Shown in pieces: positions 867-14,656 of a stretch of 14,989 bases of DNA (its first letter is position 1; the number at the start of each line of letters is the position of its first letter). The translations under genes were made by a program, and so were the position numbers. The stretch is from positions 1 to 14,989 of IMG/VR virus record IMGVR_UViG_2531839523_000008, one strand, 5' to 3'. The stretch comes from a virus (Duplodnaviria > Heunggongvirae > Uroviricota > Caudoviricetes). Below the pieces are notes generated by a model that worked only from the letters and a program-made list of their open reading frames with translations, did not search any database and was not told where the DNA came from.

Positions 867-1499
867 TTATATTAATTCGTATAATTTGGCGTAGTCGATA
901 AGCTCTACAATTGAATGCAAACCTAGCTTGCCATAAATATTAGATTTATGCGCACTAACTGTTTTATTGCTAAGTAATAACTTATCGGCAATTTCTTTAT
1001 TAGATAATCCGCTAACCAGATAACGTAATATGGTCACTTCACGATTAGATAGCACAGTGATCGTTGAACTATTCGTACTACATTTATTGCTTTTTATATA
1101 GTTAAGCGTTTCGCTAGGAAAAAACGTGTATCCGGAGAGGATCATCTGAACGGCATGAAAAATATCATTCTGATCATTGCATTTACTGACAAAACCGTTA
1201 GCACCAGCTTGTATCGCTCTGCCAGCATAAAAGCATTCTGATTTCGATGATAAAAATAACACTTTCACTGTGCTCTGGATTTGTTTGATCCTTTTCAGGA
1301 AGGTAAAACCGTCTGTTCCGGGCAAGTCTATATCCATAATGATTAAATCAACAGGACGGGTTCGGAGATAATCGATGGTTATGCGGTAATCATCCGTTTT
1401 CAGGACAATCTGCAATTCACTGTTTTTTTGCAACAGAACTTCAATAGACATTCTGATGATAGGATGAGTATCCATAATGATCACCGACGTTGGTTTCAT
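867..1499 (-). CDS. fimZ: LuxR/NarL-family response regulator FimZ
   Basis: Receiver domain (VIIMD...DLIIMDIDLPGTDG) plus C-terminal LuxR HTH (LSNREVTILRYLVSGLSNKEIADKL). Start trimmed from the track's 1562 to the ATG at 1499..1497 (MKPTSVIIMD..., 210 aa). Confidence 0.9.
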   Translation of the reverse strand: MKPTSVIIMDTHPIIRMSIEVLLQKNSELQIVLKTDDYRITIDYLRTRPVDLIIMDIDLPGTDGFTFLKRIKQIQSTVKVLFLSSKSECFYAGRAIQAGANGFVSKCNDQNDIFHAVQMILSGYTFFPSETLNYIKSNKCSTNSSTITVLSNREVTILRYLVSGLSNKEIADKLLLSNKTVSAHKSNIYGKLGLHSIVELIDYAKLYELI

Positions 1500-1682
1500 A
1501 GTTACCAGTCTCATAGGAGCGGACAATTTTCCGTTAGGGCGGTAAATTGTACTTTGATACATGAAAATACGGGTTTTCTTGATTCAGACGCGCAGCGGTG
1601 TGCGTTTGTTTGCCACTATAGCGAAATAAATCAGAAAATCAGACGCGGTCGTTCACTTGTTCAGCAACCAGATCAAAAGCCA

Positions 1683-6312: not shown

Positions 6313-6603
6313 TTAGTGATTCAGACCGTTGCCGCGCCCGTCGAGAAAAACTTCCACGAGCAAGTCGCGGGTATAAGTGCGCTCGATGCCGCGATGCAGA
6401 TAAAGCCGTCCGCGTAAATTAGCTGATGCAGTCCAGGTACCATCTTTGTGTTTGACCAGCATTCCTGGCATGACCGCACCGCGATTAACGGTCTGCGTTC
6501 CGTAATGTTGATGAACCATAAAAACTCCTGCCCGTAAGCTGGGCTGCTGAACATATAGAGACTTCTGCGCGTATTCAGGCGGTGGATGGCCGCCGGTTGT
6601 CAT
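6313..6603 (-). CDS. hypothetical protein (96 aa), first ORF downstream of the inferred PL
   Basis: ATG at 6603..6601 with GAGG about 12 nt upstream. GC-rich region with a second overlapping open frame (6321..6554), so coding status is uncertain. No arginine-rich N-like motif. Confidence 0.4.
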
Positions 6604-6799
6604 AACTAAGCCGCCTCGTTGAAGCGACTGAGGTATGAGGTGTTGAGTTGAGTTGATTTCAGCTGGTCACACCGACGTTCACGCGTCCGTTTCCCCCCTC
6701 GCACTCCCCGGAGCCTGCCGAAATTCAAGCTGCGGATCTAAGCGGTCATCGCAACGGTGAATCAGGTGGTTGCCGTATCGTTGTGTTGTTGCGACATGG

Positions 6800-6920
6800 T
6801 AATAATAGCTATTGCTATTGGCGGTATCAATACTTATAGCTATTGATTGATGTGTTTTGATATTAACTGTTTGATAGCAAAAAGAATTAATTTTGTGACT
6901 TGCATCGCATAGCGATAACT
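6800..6920 (-). promoter_or_regulatory. putative OL/PL operator-promoter region
   Basis: Palindromic sites ATAGC-TATT-GCTAT (6805-6818) and ATCGC-ATA-GCGAT (6904-6916), plus the motif TTGCTATTG (6812-6820) that recurs in the cI-cro intergenic region at 8667-8675. Position matches lambda OL/PL. Confidence 0.45.
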
Positions 6921-6968
6921 GAAGGGAGGTTGTGGTGGTTTTTTGAACGGTGTGTGATGAGGGGAGGC

Positions 6969-6995
6969 AAAAGAAAACCCGGCACGACGGCCGGG
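6969..6995 (-). terminator. intrinsic terminator ending the cI immunity transcript
   Basis: Minus-strand stem CCCGGC / GCCGGG (plus 6978-6983 and 6990-6995) with a 6-nt loop, followed immediately by TTTTCTTTT (plus-strand A-run 6969-6977); 5 nt after the stop of the 287-aa ORF. Confidence 0.6.
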
Positions 6996-6999
6996 GAAA

Positions 7000-7863
7000 T
7001 CATTTCGCATCTACAATAAATAACCTGTTTATCTGGCCTTTTTTAACAGTAGCCTTTGCGGTTATAGTGAATACTGCAGATGGATCACCTTTGGTTGATA
7101 TATATGCACTAAGAGCTCTAATATACGGGTTATTCTTCTTTCCTGCAGCTGGATCGCTAATTTCAGCAGTGATTCTCTTTTTTGAGTCATCACCATCTAA
7201 AATTATTTTAGCTGTCATATTTTGTGCATCAAATTCTGTAAGAAAAGCACGATACTCACGAAGACCGAGAACTTCATCATCATCAAGCCTATCAATTTCA
7301 GCTTTATCTCTCTCGTTAACTTTTAGAAGGCAGCCGTCAACATTTGTTGCAACACTTATCTGATCGCAAGTATTACCAATAGGTGATACTGCCTGCCTTA
7401 CAGAGGGGCGAAGCTCTACAGCCATTCGGTCAATCAAAGAGATCAACTTATCAATGGTTCCAGCATCCTTGTTTCCTAGTGCCTCTATGGCCTTTTCAAG
7501 TGACTGCTGCAAAGCTTTCATTTCATCTTTCTTGTTAGAATTTCTCGCAAAAATATATTGTAGTATTGCGCCAAGTATAGTTGCGGCGATCCCCGAGAAC
7601 AACTGGTTCTGAGTGGCGAAGTTAAGAACTGCTTCAAGAGTAAAGCAGTTAGCTTTTGCTTCGCGTGCGTAAACCTTAACTTCCTGATAATTAATGTATT
7701 TACTATATTTTTGTGTAACAGAGAAAGAAGCTGCTGTTGAGAGAACTTTAGAAAAACCCTTTAGGGATTCTCCTAGGCAGTTCAAATCTATTTCATGATT
7801 TAAAGCATCTTTTCCGTCATACCTAAGAGAGATTTTTATATCCTGTAAAGCGTCACAATCCAT
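7000..7863 (-). CDS. uncharacterised 287-aa protein with one predicted transmembrane helix; AT-rich moron in the rexAB-equivalent slot
   Basis: Uninterrupted 864-nt ORF in AT-rich DNA (roughly 35-40 % G+C by hand count of sampled lines, versus about 50 % in the red genes). ATG at 7863..7861, 66 nt downstream of the cI stop with no terminator between. Central hydrophobic segment [19 protein letters not shown]; no recognisable enzymatic motif. Confidence 0.7.
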
Positions 7864-7929
7864 AAATCGCTCTCGTCTAATTCTAATTAAATTTACTATC
7901 CCCTAAACGACTCATCAGCACAGTACTGA

Positions 7930-8622
7930 TTATCCATGTTTCCTGTACGTTTGGGGCATGCTCCCAATAACCTTACCGAAGATGAACACCCGGTTCATCT
8001 CGTCTTTCTCGATCGGGTCCCACGGTGAGTAGCTCTTGTTATCAGAGATAACCAGCAGCTTATCCTTCATCATTTGCAGGCGCTTTACATGGGCGGTGTC
8101 GTCGTACAGAAACGCATAGATGCCATCACCGTCGAAAGATTTAACCGTGATATCAACGAACAGCAGATCACCTGGTTCGATCGTTCCTGACATGCTGTCA
8201 CCACGCACGTTAATGATGCGGATATTTTCTGCCTTCCTACCATCGAACATGTGACGAGCATCGTCAAACGAGTACTCAACCGAGCGTAGAACTTCTACAA
8301 ACTCACGGTTGATGACTCCCGGCCCGGCACTCACTTCTATATCAAGAACGTCAATCTTGAAGTATTTGGGATGGTTGGCAGTAGGCTTCCCTAATTGTTG
8401 ACCGTCATTTCTCATCGGGCCTATGCCTGATGAGAGCCACTCTGTTCGAACACCCAATGCATTAGCTATTTCAACAATTTTTGTTGAGCCGCGCGCGTTG
8501 CCGCTTGTCAGTCTCCAGATTGTGGGTTGAGCTACGCCAGACGCCTTTGCAAGAGCGCCTTGAGACATTCCAGATTGTTCCATCGCTAGGTTTAAGCGAT
8601 CAGCAAGAGTTTCTTTTTTCAT
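7930..8622 (-). CDS. cI: prophage repressor cI (LexA-like, HTH + S24 peptidase domain)
   Basis: N-terminal HTH (MSQGALAKASGVAQPTIWRL), Ala-Gly autocleavage site (EVSAGPG), catalytic Ser in GDSM and Lys in HVKRL. Start trimmed from the TTG at 8658 to the ATG at 8622..8620; no Shine-Dalgarno sequence, consistent with a leaderless PRM-type transcript. Confidence 0.9.
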   Translation of the reverse strand: MKKETLADRLNLAMEQSGMSQGALAKASGVAQPTIWRLTSGNARGSTKIVEIANALGVRTEWLSSGIGPMRNDGQQLGKPTANHPKYFKIDVLDIEVSAGPGVINREFVEVLRSVEYSFDDARHMFDGRKAENIRIINVRGDSMSGTIEPGDLLFVDITVKSFDGDGIYAFLYDDTAHVKRLQMMKDKLLVISDNKSYSPWDPIEKDEMNRVFIFGKVIGSMPQTYRKHG

Positions 8623-8732
8623 AAGTTTTAATTTATACGCTTGCGTATTGATGGTCAAAACACGTTTTGCTATTGTTATGATTAATACGCATTGCTATTA
8701 TTTATTCGTTGCAATACCAATAGGAATTGATA
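8623..8732. promoter_or_regulatory. OR operator / divergent PRM-PR region between cI and cro
   Basis: 110-bp divergent intergenic region with palindrome ATACGC-TT-GCGTAT (8635-8648), half-site variant ATACGCATTGCTAT (8685-8698) and TTGCTATTG (8667-8675). Confidence 0.6.
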
Positions 8733-8960
8733 ATGACAAATCAAACCATTCAACTCGCAATCAGTATTACAGGTAGTCAAAAACGACTGGCAGATCTATG
8801 CGGTGTAGCCCAACCCACTGTTTGGCGTTGGCTACACGGTGGCGGAATTGATGCCCGCTATGTAATGAAAATTGTCTCAGCCACTGGTGGAAAGATTAAA
8901 CCAGCAGATATTCGTCCCGACCTCGCACCATTGTTTAACGCGAGTAATTCTGCCGCCTAA
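8733..8960 (+). CDS. cro: Cro-like HTH regulator (YdaS-type)
   Basis: ATG at 8733 with AGGAA Shine-Dalgarno sequence (track start 8727 is TTG). Product MTNQTIQLAISITGSQKRLADLCGVAQPTVWRWLHGG is a YdaS/Cro-type HTH; divergent from cI. Confidence 0.8.
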   Translation: MTNQTIQLAISITGSQKRLADLCGVAQPTVWRWLHGGGIDARYVMKIVSATGGKIKPADIRPDLAPLFNASNSAA

Positions 8961-11543: not shown

Positions 11544-11610
11544 TGAAACAGGTGAGTTGAGTTCAAACTGTAGTACAATTCTCTCCAGTTTGAACAGGAA
11601 AGAATATGCT

Positions 11611-11943
11611 ATGAACCCTTATATTTATCTTGGTGGTGCAATACTTGCAGAGGTCATTGGTACAACCTTAATGAAGTTTTCAGAAGGTTTTACACGGTTA
11701 TGGCCATCTGTTGGTACAATTATTTGTTATTGTGCATCATTCTGGTTATTAGCTCAGACGCTGGCTTATATTCCTACAGGGATTGCTTATGGTATCTGGT
11801 CAGGAGTCGGTATTGTCCTGATTAGCTTACTGTCATGGGGATTTTTCGGCCAACGGCTGGACCTGCCAGCCATTATAGGCATGATGTTGCTTTGTGCCGG
11901 TGTGTTGGTTATTAATTTATTGTCACGAAGCACACCACATTAA
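11611..11943 (+). CDS. emrE: small multidrug resistance efflux transporter EmrE
   Basis: ATG at 11611 (MNPYIYLGGAILAEVIGTTLMKFSEGF..., 110 aa, four TM helices) with AGGAAA Shine-Dalgarno sequence; track start 11557 is an upstream extension. Confidence 0.9.
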   Translation: MNPYIYLGGAILAEVIGTTLMKFSEGFTRLWPSVGTIICYCASFWLLAQTLAYIPTGIAYGIWSGVGIVLISLLSWGFFGQRLDLPAIIGMMLLCAGVLVINLLSRSTPH

Positions 11944-11973
11944 AATAATTTGTTTCTAAACGACTAAAATATG

Positions 11974-12014
11974 GAGGCTCTTATATTTATATGAGCCTCG
12001 TTTTATGCTTTTTG
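11974..12014 (+). terminator. intrinsic terminator after emrE
   Basis: Stem GAGGCTC / GAGCCTC (11974-11980 and 11993-11999) with a 12-nt AT loop, followed by GTTTTATGCTTTTTG. Confidence 0.55.
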
Positions 12015-12197
12015 TTAATGTCTTTATTTTTTATGTATTCTTTTGTGCTTTCAAGATTATGGCGTAAGAAAATTGCAATACGATTATTGTTGTATATTCA
12101 AGATAATGTGACCTTAATTGTCTTTTTAAATAAAAATTAAACAAAAATTATATCCCACCACTAAGGTTTATAAAAGCATACGTTAGCAGGTGTCACC

Positions 12198-13724
12198 ATG
12201 AAAAAAGCCATAGCATATATGCGATTTTCATCACCAGGTCAGATGTCTGGCGACTCATTAAACCGACAGAGAAGACTTATTGCTGAATGGTTAAAGGTAA
12301 ATAGTGATTATTATCTTGATACCATAACATATGAAGATTTAGGATTAAGTGCATTCAAAGGAAAGCATGCACAATCAGGAGCTTTTTCGGAATTTTTAGA
12401 TGCTATAGAGCATGGTTATATATTGCCAGGAACTACATTGTTAGTTGAAAGTCTGGACAGACTTTCAAGAGAAAAAGTCGGTGAAGCGATTGAACGTCTG
12501 AAATTGATTTTGAATCACGGTATTGATGTTATAACTCTTTGCGACAATACAGTCTATAATATTGACTCTTTGAATGAGCCATATTCATTAATAAAAGCCA
12601 TACTTATAGCACAAAGGGCAAATGAAGAAAGCGAGATAAAGTCAAGTCGGGTTAAATTATCATGGAAGAAAAAACGGCAGGATGCACTGGAATCAGGTAC
12701 GATTATGACGGCGTCTTGTCCGAGATGGCTCTCCTTAGATGACAAAAGAACGGCTTTTGTTCCAGACCCCGACAGGGTGAAAACTATTGAGCTAATTTTT
12801 AAACTCAGGATGGAAAGGCGCTCATTGAATGCAATAGCCAAGTATTTAAATGATCATGCTGTAAAGAATTTCTCAGGAAAAGAAAGTGTATGGGGACCTT
12901 CTGTAATTGAAAAATTATTAGCGAATAAAGCTCTGATAGGTATATGCGTACCTTCATATCGTGCAAGAGGGAAAGGGATAAGTGAAATCGCTGGTTATTA
13001 TCCCAGAGTCATATCAGATGATTTGTTTTACGCTGTACAGGAAATTCGGTTGGCACCTTTTGGTATTAGCAATAGTAGCAAGAATCCTATGCTAATAAAT
13101 CTACTTCGAACAGTTATGAAGTGTGAGGCTTGTGGTAATACCATGATTGTTCATGCGGTATCTGGAAGTTTGCATGGCTATTATGTTTGTCCGATGAGAA
13201 GATTACATCGATGTGACAGGCCATCAATAAAAAGAGATTTGGTTGATTATAATATCATTAATGAATTGCTTTTTAATTGTAGCAAAATTCAACCAGTTGA
13301 AAACAAGAAAGATGCTAATGAAACTTTAGAGTTAAAAATTATTGAGCTTCAGATGAAAATTAATAATTTAATCGTTGCATTGTCTGTCGCGCCTGAAGTT
13401 ACCGCTATAGCAGAGAAAATAAGACTATTAGATAAGGAATTACGAAGGGCTTCGGTATCATTGAAAACTTTGAAGAGTAAAGGTGTAAATTCATTCAGTG
13501 ATTTTTATGCTATTGACTTAACCAGTAAAAATGGACGAGAGTTATGCCGTACACTTGCCTATAAAACATTCGAAAAAATCATAATTAATACGGATAATAA
13601 AACCTGTGATATCTATTTTATGAATGGCATTGTTTTTAAACACTATCCTTTAATGAAAGTAATATCCGCCCAGCAGGCGATAAGTGCTCTCAAATATATG
13701 GTTGATGGTGAGATTTATTTCTAA
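12198..13724 (+). CDS. ybcK: large serine recombinase (DLP12 YbcK-type)
   Basis: 508-aa ORF; N-terminal resolvase-type catalytic motif AYMRFSSPGQ (nucleophilic Ser); Cys-rich segment (CEACGNTMIVHAV...YYVCP...HRCD) consistent with a recombinase zinc ribbon; AT-rich gene; AGGTG Shine-Dalgarno sequence. Confidence 0.9.
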   Translation: MKKAIAYMRFSSPGQMSGDSLNRQRRLIAEWLKVNSDYYLDTITYEDLGLSAFKGKHAQSGAFSEFLDAIEHGYILPGTTLLVESLDRLSREKVGEAIERLKLILNHGIDVITLCDNTVYNIDSLNEPYSLIKAILIAQRANEESEIKSSRVKLSWKKKRQDALESGTIMTASCPRWLSLDDKRTAFVPDPDRVKTIELIFKLRMERRSLNAIAKYLNDHAVKNFSGKESVWGPSVIEKLLANKALIGICVPSYRARGKGISEIAGYYPRVISDDLFYAVQEIRLAPFGISNSSKNPMLINLLRTVMKCEACGNTMIVHAVSGSLHGYYVCPMRRLHRCDRPSIKRDLVDYNIINELLFNCSKIQPVENKKDANETLELKIIELQMKINNLIVALSVAPEVTAIAEKIRLLDKELRRASVSLKTLKSKGVNSFSDFYAIDLTSKNGRELCRTLAYKTFEKIIINTDNKTCDIYFMNGIVFKHYPLMKVISAQQAISALKYMVDGEIYF

Positions 13725-13922
13725 ATAATGATCTCGGATTTTAAGTTATGCTATGGTGATAAAGTGCAAGACAGAATTAATTATCTTTGACGAAACTTAA
13801 TGGGTAATTACTTTGTTTGCTCCCACAAGCGAGTTTTGTACGGCTGTATTGGGGTAGTAAATGAGCTATACAATCTTAATCATTTGTTAGGTGAGAACTC
13901 TTGGTCGCAGATTCAAATACTG

Positions 13923-13972
13923 AAAATACGTGACAAATTATTATGAGCAAAATGGTGTATGTCACGTATTTT
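13923..13972. repeat. 13-bp perfect inverted repeat with 24-bp spacer in the ybcK-ybcL intergenic region
   Basis: AAAATACGTGACA (13923-13935) and TGTCACGTATTTT (13960-13972) are exact reverse complements. Confidence 0.6.
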
Positions 13973-14105
13973 GAATGGTAGGTTAAAAAATAACACCGAC
14001 TTTCGTAGGTATTACTAATAATAAAGCAGAGTTTTTAGATAGTATCAATGTGCTTTGTGTATATTGTGGCAAATAATTGGGTTGGGGGTACAATTGTGAT
14101 TGCTT

Positions 14106-14135
14106 TTGCATGAACATTGCGCCTTTATGCATAAT
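14106..14135 (+). promoter_or_regulatory. candidate sigma70 promoter for ybcL (TTGCAT - 18 nt - CATAAT)
   Basis: Motifs at 14106-14111 and 14130-14135, about 55 nt upstream of the ybcL ATG; by-eye match only. Confidence 0.3.
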
Positions 14136-14188
14136 GAGATAAAGGAATATCAAATAAAATAACGATAGGTCATAACAAAGAGGTTTTT

Positions 14189-14656
14189 ATGAAAACACTT
14201 ATCGTTTCAACTGTATTGGCATTCATAACATTTTCTGCGCAGGCTGCAGCATTTCAGGTCACTAGTAATGAAATAAAAACAGGAGAGCAACTTACAACGT
14301 CTCATGTCTTTTCTGGATTTGGGTGTGAAGGTGGTAATACATCGCCCTCATTAACCTGGTCTGGTGTTCCTGAAGGTACCAAAAGCTTTGCCGTAACTGT
14401 ATATGATCCAGATGCACCTACAGGCAGTGGTTGGTGGCATTGGACTGTTGTTAATATTCCAGCAACAGTAACATATTTGCCCGTTGATGCAGGGAGACGT
14501 GATGGAACAAAACTGCCGACTGGTGCTGTTCAAGGCCGAAATGATTTTGGCTATGCTGGGTTTGGTGGCGCATGTCCTCCTAAAGGAGATAAACCACATC
14601 ATTACCAGTTTAAAGTATGGGCTCTAAAAACTGAAAAGATTCCTGTAGATTCTTAG
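14189..14656 (+). pseudogene. ybcL: ybcL (PEBP/RKIP-family periplasmic protein) truncated at its 3' end by IS2
   Basis: Signal peptide MKTLIVSTVLAFITFSAQAAA and PEBP-like body. ORF ends at codon 155 with a TAG (14654-14656) formed by the first bases of the IS2 terminal repeat; as I recall, K-12 YbcL is about 28 residues longer. Confidence 0.75.

Follow-up and report, generated by a model that had tools for sequence, protein, structure and literature searches.

A DUF7946/DUF7947 Protein Encoded behind the cI Repressor of an Escherichia coli Lambdoid Prophage as a Candidate Anti-Phage Determinant

The gene described here is found in the virus record IMGVR_UViG_2531839523_000008, a DNA stretch of 14,989 nucleotides (the window) that represents a lambdoid prophage of Escherichia coli inserted at the argU/DLP12 site. 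It is an intact open reading frame (ORF) on the minus strand (7000..7863, stop codon included), running from ATG to TGA and encoding a 287-residue protein that combines the DUF7946 and DUF7947 domains and is homologous to protein 40A of phage phi80. In the best reading of the available data, to which we assign a probability of about one half, this gene is cargo cotranscribed with the repressor, and its product, expressed in the lysogen, serves on its own as an anti-phage determinant. An anti-phage role is favored because members of the family typically follow a repressor gene, a candidate defense system from the PADLOC collection is found in the same slot elsewhere, and AbiD and SIR2 genes adjoin other members of the family.

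A previous interpretation, made from the nucleotide sequence of the window (the sequence-only reading), had described this gene as the sole cargo in the position that rexAB occupies in phage lambda, and this description holds: 7000..7863 is the only ORF in the interval between cI and OL/PL. The gene is assigned to this interval because the cI-ORF unit is flanked by a PL-like promoter and by two sets of operator-like repeats, OL at 6800..6845 and OR, between cI and cro, at 8659..8702, both listed without strand. The repeats of both sets belong to the TAATAGCTATTGCTATT family; OL overlaps the PL-like promoter (6830..6802, minus strand), and OR overlaps a PR-like promoter (8673-8701, plus strand). 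The gene for a cI-type repressor, in which Pfam recognizes HTH_3 and Peptidase_S24 domains, is located at 7930..8622 on the minus strand, 66 nt 5' of the ORF. The 66-nt spacer between the cI stop codon and the ATG (7864..7929, minus strand) contains a GAGAG Shine-Dalgarno-like run about 8 nt 5' of the ATG. When the minus strand of this spacer was scanned for promoter-like and terminator-like sites, none were found, in agreement with the earlier statement that no terminator separates the two genes. An intrinsic terminator (6968..6995, minus strand) consists of a GC-rich CCCGGC-loop-GCCGGG hairpin (6995..6978) followed by a T-run; it had been correctly recognized before, except that it lies 4 nt, not 5 nt, past the ORF stop. 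Just upstream of cI, a PRM-like promoter candidate (TTGACC-17-TAAATT; 8630..8658, minus strand) is identified by its match to the consensus. Expression in the lysogen would thus probably take place on the cI message, which would run from PRM through cI and the gene to the terminator.

The G+C content of the gene is 38.4%, with 29.5% at third codon positions (GC3), compared with 48.2% in cI, 52.2% in bet, 52.6% in exo, and a range of 48 to 53% for the neighboring genes cI, bet, exo, and P, so that the depressed G+C content noted earlier is evident. The ratio of nonsynonymous to synonymous substitution rates (dN/dS) is 0.06 for the window gene and its Klebsiella orthologue and 0.036 for phi80 40A and its counterpart in K. 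aerogenes. These values, 0.04 to 0.06, indicate strong purifying selection and, together with the breadth of the family, rule out a spurious ORF or a pseudogene. Comparative data support the view that the gene is a moron in the rex slot, in which case the immunity region of this DLP12-site prophage would have gained it as cargo by horizontal transfer.

A Catalogued Family with a Two-Domain Architecture

Pfam searches assign residues 11 to 191 (7291..7833, minus strand) to DUF7946, with a score of 187.2 bits (cutoff, 27), an E value of 4e-55, and complete coverage of the profile (positions 1 to 183 of 183), and residues 201 to 287 to DUF7947 (67.1 bits, the cutoff again being 27; E = 1e-18). 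The protein also matches phrog_5147 end to end (positions 1 to 287 of 287; E = 1.5e-178) and shares 62% identity with phi80 protein 40A (PHI80_46) over residues 1 to 285 of 287 (tblastn; E = 2e-114). The suggestion that it might belong to an undescribed family has to be abandoned: the family is already catalogued in Pfam, in PHROG 5147, and as phi80 40A, albeit as one of uncharacterized function.

A family profile search against 1.84 billion representatives yields 498 clusters at 50% identity; with few exceptions, these proteins are 270 to 300 residues long and have the same two-domain architecture. Both Pfam domains are present in 109 of the 111 family representatives. The exact window protein is found on at least 1000 public contigs, where it is always named either hypothetical or DUF7946. 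Among 5426 complete E. coli genomes, 77 contain the region at 99% identity or more; ST70 and EcPF15 are examples of strains with this prophage. When positions 6900-8000 are used as the query, 1480 of the 5426 genomes contain a partial match at 90 to 95% identity, but coverage reaches 80% or more in only 77. A sequence flanking the gene, probably the 3' end of cI or the OL side, is therefore far commoner than the gene itself.

Phi80 40A (AFV29182; UniProt P14817) resembles the window gene in its domains, length, and slot; the gene order in the annotated phi80 genome is cI, 40A, and then the CI operators and pL. This gene was recorded as split into 40A and 40B in the 1988 record X13065. The two proteins represent different subfamilies, the phi80 type having 288 residues and the window type grouping with proteins from Klebsiella, Enterobacter, and Erwinia at 87 to 91% identity, and the spacer between cI and 40A is 137 nt long, compared with 66 nt in the window. 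The GenBank note that assigns an "acetate kinase superfamily domain" to 40A is not reproduced by Pfam.

No characterized family is matched by the protein in PADLOC, NCBIfam, PHROGs, or the PDB sequence set; in the latter, the single protein has no match and the 111-sequence profile returns only noise, the best E value being 0.029 to prefoldin. More distant similarity is seen to several families of 275 to 302 residues, namely PDC-S42 (a PADLOC candidate), LAPAL_fam (an NCBIfam family of putative phage structural proteins), and PHROGs 3243 and 13337, which share the N-terminal module of about 115 to 190 residues, including its apolar helix. These matches are weak (E values from 1e-4 to 1e-10) and leave the C-terminal OB-fold uncovered. 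Specifically, residues 9 to 127 of the window protein align with positions 4 to 113 of 302 in the PDC-S42 profile (19 bits; E = 1.5e-4), and 28 of the 111 representatives match PDC-S42 in the N-terminal module, with a best E value of 3e-8. LAPAL_fam is matched by 61 of the 111; its cutoff is 60 bits, and the window protein reaches 26.2 bits, over the 116 N-terminal positions only. The similarity to PDC-S42 reflects a related N-terminal module and not membership in the same family.

The structure was modeled with AlphaFold. A first model, built from 21 close homologues, had a poor N-terminal domain, with a predicted local distance difference test (pLDDT) score of 76, and was superseded by one based on the 111-sequence alignment, which is compact and has a pLDDT of 92.9 and a predicted template modeling (pTM) score of 0.80. 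Within DUF7946, the latter model contains, in order, an α/β module (residues 9 to 82) with the most conserved motif of the protein (Y15, G17, A20, H23, L30, S33, and G36), an apolar helix of 22 residues rich in Gly, Ala, and Ser (residues 87 to 108; 7540..7605, minus strand), and amphipathic helices at residues 112 to 128, 134 to 150, and 152 to 158. A conserved linker, P161-x-G163-x2-C166, is accompanied by a β-hairpin. The C-terminal domain (residues 197 to 287; 7003..7275, minus strand), which includes DUF7947, is predicted to form a five-stranded OB barrel, with conserved residues D212, R230, D237, P238, N245, Y247, and K270. The best structural match of this domain is of the metal-binding CusF/SilF type and not of the SSB type, and a conserved aromatic ladder is not apparent. 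Sequence identity to OB-fold proteins (SilF and CusF; RPA, SSB, and PriB; the B subunits of AB5 toxins) is 5 to 13%, and, unlike all of these, the window protein has its OB-fold fused to a domain of 190 residues that has no solved analogue. Foldseek searches against models of viral proteins find only other uncharacterized proteins.

Repressor Synteny and Variable Cargo

The cI gene of the window is 96 to 98% identical at the nucleotide level to those of phages D2, 4A7, Lambda_4C10, and PhiR68_2. In phage D2 (OM475427; locus L037, 1003-2419), the cI-distal slot is occupied by the PADLOC candidate pair PDC-M11A/B (E = 3e-133 and 7e-52), in which the PDC-M11B protein contains an ASCH domain. In PhiR68_2 (PV340576; locus L038, 950-2405), the same slot encodes proteins of 341 and 149 residues; this pair has no match in Pfam or PADLOC and represents another uncharacterized candidate. 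Since both phages carry other genes behind a cI of the window type, the slot is a site of variable cargo. Those of its contents that can be recognized are defense genes or defense candidates.

In most of the sampled contexts, which come from Gamma- and Betaproteobacteria, the family gene directly follows a repressor gene in the same orientation, and a divergent cro is usually present as well. This holds for four Morganella prophages that differ in their recombination and replication modules, as well as for loci in Vitreoscilla, Neisseria, and Enterobacter and three loci in Mannheimia. Exceptions occur in Serratia, Rahnella, a Burkholderiaceae metagenome-assembled genome (MAG), and Helicobacter, and on one metagenome contig that has the family gene next to a transposase and an integrase. 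For the distant members of the family, the contexts come from short metagenome contigs with little flanking sequence.

Several neighborhoods include defense genes or candidates. The Serratia gene is found in an AlpA island, where it adjoins a gene for AbiD (E = 5e-55). In Vitreoscilla sp. C1, the family gene is directly followed by one for a 537-residue SIR2/STALD protein (locus L017, 5661-7274), which matches PADLOC PDC-S25 with an E value of 2e-142 and contains a ThsA-like region, so that two candidate defense genes stand in tandem behind cI. The Erwinia locus has two additional ORFs between cI and the family gene, one with a Tlde1 domain and one that is small. Tlde1 is an L,D-transpeptidase-like effector of type VI secretion. 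In the cI-distal slot of Erwinia sp. CGal63 (locus L003, 3188-3933), the Tlde1-domain ORF (PF10908) is accompanied by a hydrophobic ORF of 71 residues, and the two resemble a toxin and its immunity protein that have been added to this slot. The metagenome contig ERZ27256727 (L031, 2873-3553 and 4396-4668) encodes a distant member, P0118, whose gene overlaps an upstream ORF of 226 residues, for which Pfam gives no match, and precedes an ORF of 91 residues; a gene for an Apyc1-like (anti-Pycsar) metallo-β-lactamase is found just upstream. This arrangement suggests a phage setting in which the operon is organized differently.

The position of the gene is that of lambda rexAB, between cI and OL/PL on what would here, too, be the repressor transcript. 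The closest parallel in organization is bstA of the Salmonella prophage BTP1, a proven abortive-infection gene that lies downstream of cI, has its own rho-independent terminator, and retains synteny with the repressor across Proteobacteria (PMC8585504). According to the same authors, rexAB occupies a site equivalent to that of bstA (PMC8585504). Like bstA, the window gene is a single gene behind the repressor, with its own terminator and with synteny conserved across taxa. BstA differs in having a KilA-N-like DNA-binding domain, which is not matched by the window protein in Pfam searches at E values up to 0.1; a further feature of BstA is aba, a cognate DNA element for self-immunity in the 5' end of its gene. 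As had been noted earlier, there is no similarity to RexA, RexB, or SieB: Pfam searches give no match to any of the three, and hhalign probabilities for RexA and RexB are 0.2% and 0.1%, respectively, so that homology to the Rex proteins is rejected.

The cI-distal slot of lambdoid phages, which has yielded rexAB and bstA, therefore has another recurrent occupant in the DUF7946/DUF7947 family, found there in Enterobacterales, Pasteurellaceae, and Neisseriales. If the defense reading holds, the family would be a new variant among repressor-linked prophage defense genes and would add a defense family, possibly with a new effector principle; if it is false, the repressor-linked slot would also carry nondefense cargo.

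Linkage to the repressor might also mean that the protein tunes the prophage's own switch or induction, its OB-fold binding single-stranded DNA or the repressor/RecA* complex and thereby altering cI cleavage or CI/Cro regulation. Such a protein would resemble lambda RexA, for which a role in the lysogenic-to-lytic transition has reportedly been proposed in recent work. This explanation is unlikely in view of the identities of the repressors involved. In K. aerogenes, four contexts place an identical protein behind at least three different sets of repressor, cro, and replication genes, and in Rac-like prophages of K. pneumoniae the gene upstream of the family gene encodes a short, 131-residue non-S24 repressor. 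The Serratia gene, next to AbiD, occurs without any repressor, and the best match of the OB-fold, being of the CusF/SilF type and lacking a conserved aromatic ladder, does not point to single-stranded DNA. Finally, the same cI allele works with other cargo in D2 and PhiR68_2, and the protein is therefore not part of the switch.

The Apolar Helix and Possible Modes of Action

The sequence-only reading had predicted one transmembrane (TM) helix. An apolar helix is indeed present and conserved in position, but its insertion energy is borderline and the charges around it appear to have the wrong topology for an anchor. If it did span the inner membrane constitutively, the protein might be a superinfection exclusion (Sie) protein that blocks the entry of phage DNA in the manner of P22 SieA or HK97 gp15. 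Consistent with such a role, the stretch of residues 88 to 106 is uncharged, with a mean Kyte-Doolittle hydropathy of 1.85 over 19 residues (family median, 1.6), and it is rich in small residues, as are packed TM helices; in addition, one family member weakly matches ZorA/MotA. On the summed Hessa scale, however, the helix scores +1.6 kcal/mol in the window protein, with a family median of +3.7 and only 22 of the 111 members below +2, and in 55 of the 111 the segment includes at least two charged residues, a soft count given the gappy alignment. The hydrophobic moment of the helix is 0.09, compared with 0.49 to 0.50 in the flanking amphipathic helices. Lys and Arg residues are clustered on its C-terminal side in 109 of 111 members, which implies that the N-terminal domain of 86 residues would have to be exported without a signal peptide; such an N-out topology is unlikely. 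AlphaFold confidently places the helix in the compact model described above (pTM of 0.80), and the protein has no match among the membrane Sie families (P22 SieA and SieB, HK97 gp15 type) in Pfam or PHROGs. A constitutive Sie protein is accordingly rather improbable. In the predicted model, the helix is probably packed within a soluble fold from which it might be deployed, and a constitutive anchor role is unlikely.

Lysogenic conversion cargo unrelated to phages, such as a host fitness or stress factor that handles a small ligand or a metal through the CusF-like OB-fold, is very improbable: CusF and SilF are periplasmic, whereas the window protein has no signal peptide and is 7 to 8% identical to SilF, the Met/His/Trp metal ligands of CusF-type proteins are not represented in the set of conserved residues given above, and the genomic neighborhoods point to defense genes.

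For the anti-phage determinant, the following mechanism can be proposed. The protein would be a soluble cytoplasmic sensor-effector that counters superinfecting phages, either through exclusion or through abortive infection. Its OB-fold and the conserved N-terminal motif might recognize a phage ligand, either single-stranded DNA or a replication intermediate, or else a phage protein. Binding of the ligand would free the apolar helix (residues 87 to 108), which at rest would be shielded by the amphipathic helices, and the freed helix might then drive oligomerization, insertion into the inner membrane, or both, and collapse the energy state of the infected cell. The outcome would be that of RexA/RexB, obtained from one polypeptide. 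The proposed logic is the same, a cytoplasmic sensor coupled to a membrane-directed effector, but RexA and RexB are encoded by two genes and include a multipass membrane channel in addition to the sensor, whereas the window has a single ORF with one borderline apolar helix. A broader form of this proposal would have the DUF7946/DUF7947 proteins be a new and widespread group of repressor-linked single-polypeptide abortive-infection effectors, whose N-terminal fold hides a membrane-active apolar helix that is freed upon recognition of a phage product by the OB domain, with 40A responsible for the T4 block and the interference with P1 in phi80/Lula lysogens. We regard this form as doubtful.

Several observations weigh against an anti-phage role. 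The ORF protein is not matched by any of the PADLOC models of experimentally validated systems, and the similarity to PDC-S42 is weak, confined to the N terminus, and directed to what is itself a mere candidate. Structure searches with the N-terminal region of about 190 residues find no solved analogue, catalytic or pore-forming ones included. Family genes in Rahnella (after dinI), the Burkholderiaceae MAG, and the Helicobacter prophage are found with neither a repressor nor a defense gene next to them. Cotranscription with cI is suggested by consensus scans, and the release of the helix is speculation. In the literature searched, which did not extend to the phi80 genome paper or to the prophage defense screen of Brenes and Laub, there is no functional test of DUF7946, DUF7947, PHROG 5147, PDC-S42, WP_000340376, or 40A.

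The phenotypes of phi80 lysogens have to be read with similar care. Unlike lambda lysogens, Lula/phi80 lysogens do not plate T4 and give an approximately 10-fold lower yield of P1, effects to which no gene has been assigned (PMC2885432). Another phi80 product, TaiEcA (orf63; Tai stands for tail assembly inhibition), blocks HK544, HK578, and HK106, all of them temperate phages (PMC11364771). As phi80 thus has a proven defense protein expressed in the lysogen, the T4 and P1 phenotype cannot be credited to 40A, which likewise counts against the anti-phage reading. Homology of the window protein to TaiEcA (PHI80_63) was considered and rejected (hhalign probability of 0.27%). The presence of a 62% identical homologue in a laboratory phage makes the defense hypothesis directly testable.

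Other Features of the Prophage

At the argU/DLP12 site, the window contains, in order, sfmF and fimZ (867-1562, minus strand), the gene for tRNA-Arg(tct) (1742-1818), and intD (1834-2997). The order after intD is exo, bet, gam, kil, the operator/promoter region, the ORF, cI, cro, a YdaT-like cII, O, and P. The cro-like gene (8733..8960, plus strand) belongs to the YdaS/P22_Cro family and is divergent from cI. No gene for an N-type antiterminator is visible at 6603-6800, in the gap of about 200 nt that separates kil from the PL-like promoter (6830..6802); this gap contains just one ORF, which is very short and starts near 6797. In phi80 and in one K. aerogenes relative, N is encoded at the corresponding position.

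Beyond P, the window contains a block of low G+C content (11557-14656; 30 to 38%) with emrE-, ybcK-, and ybcL-like genes, which is presumably the cargo set of DLP12. It encodes an EmrE-like SMR transporter (11557-11943), a ybcK-like large serine recombinase of 508 residues (12198-13724), and a ybcL-like member of the PEBP family (14189-14656). In strain ST70, which carries the same prophage backbone, an inverse autotransporter gene is found after P in place of this block.

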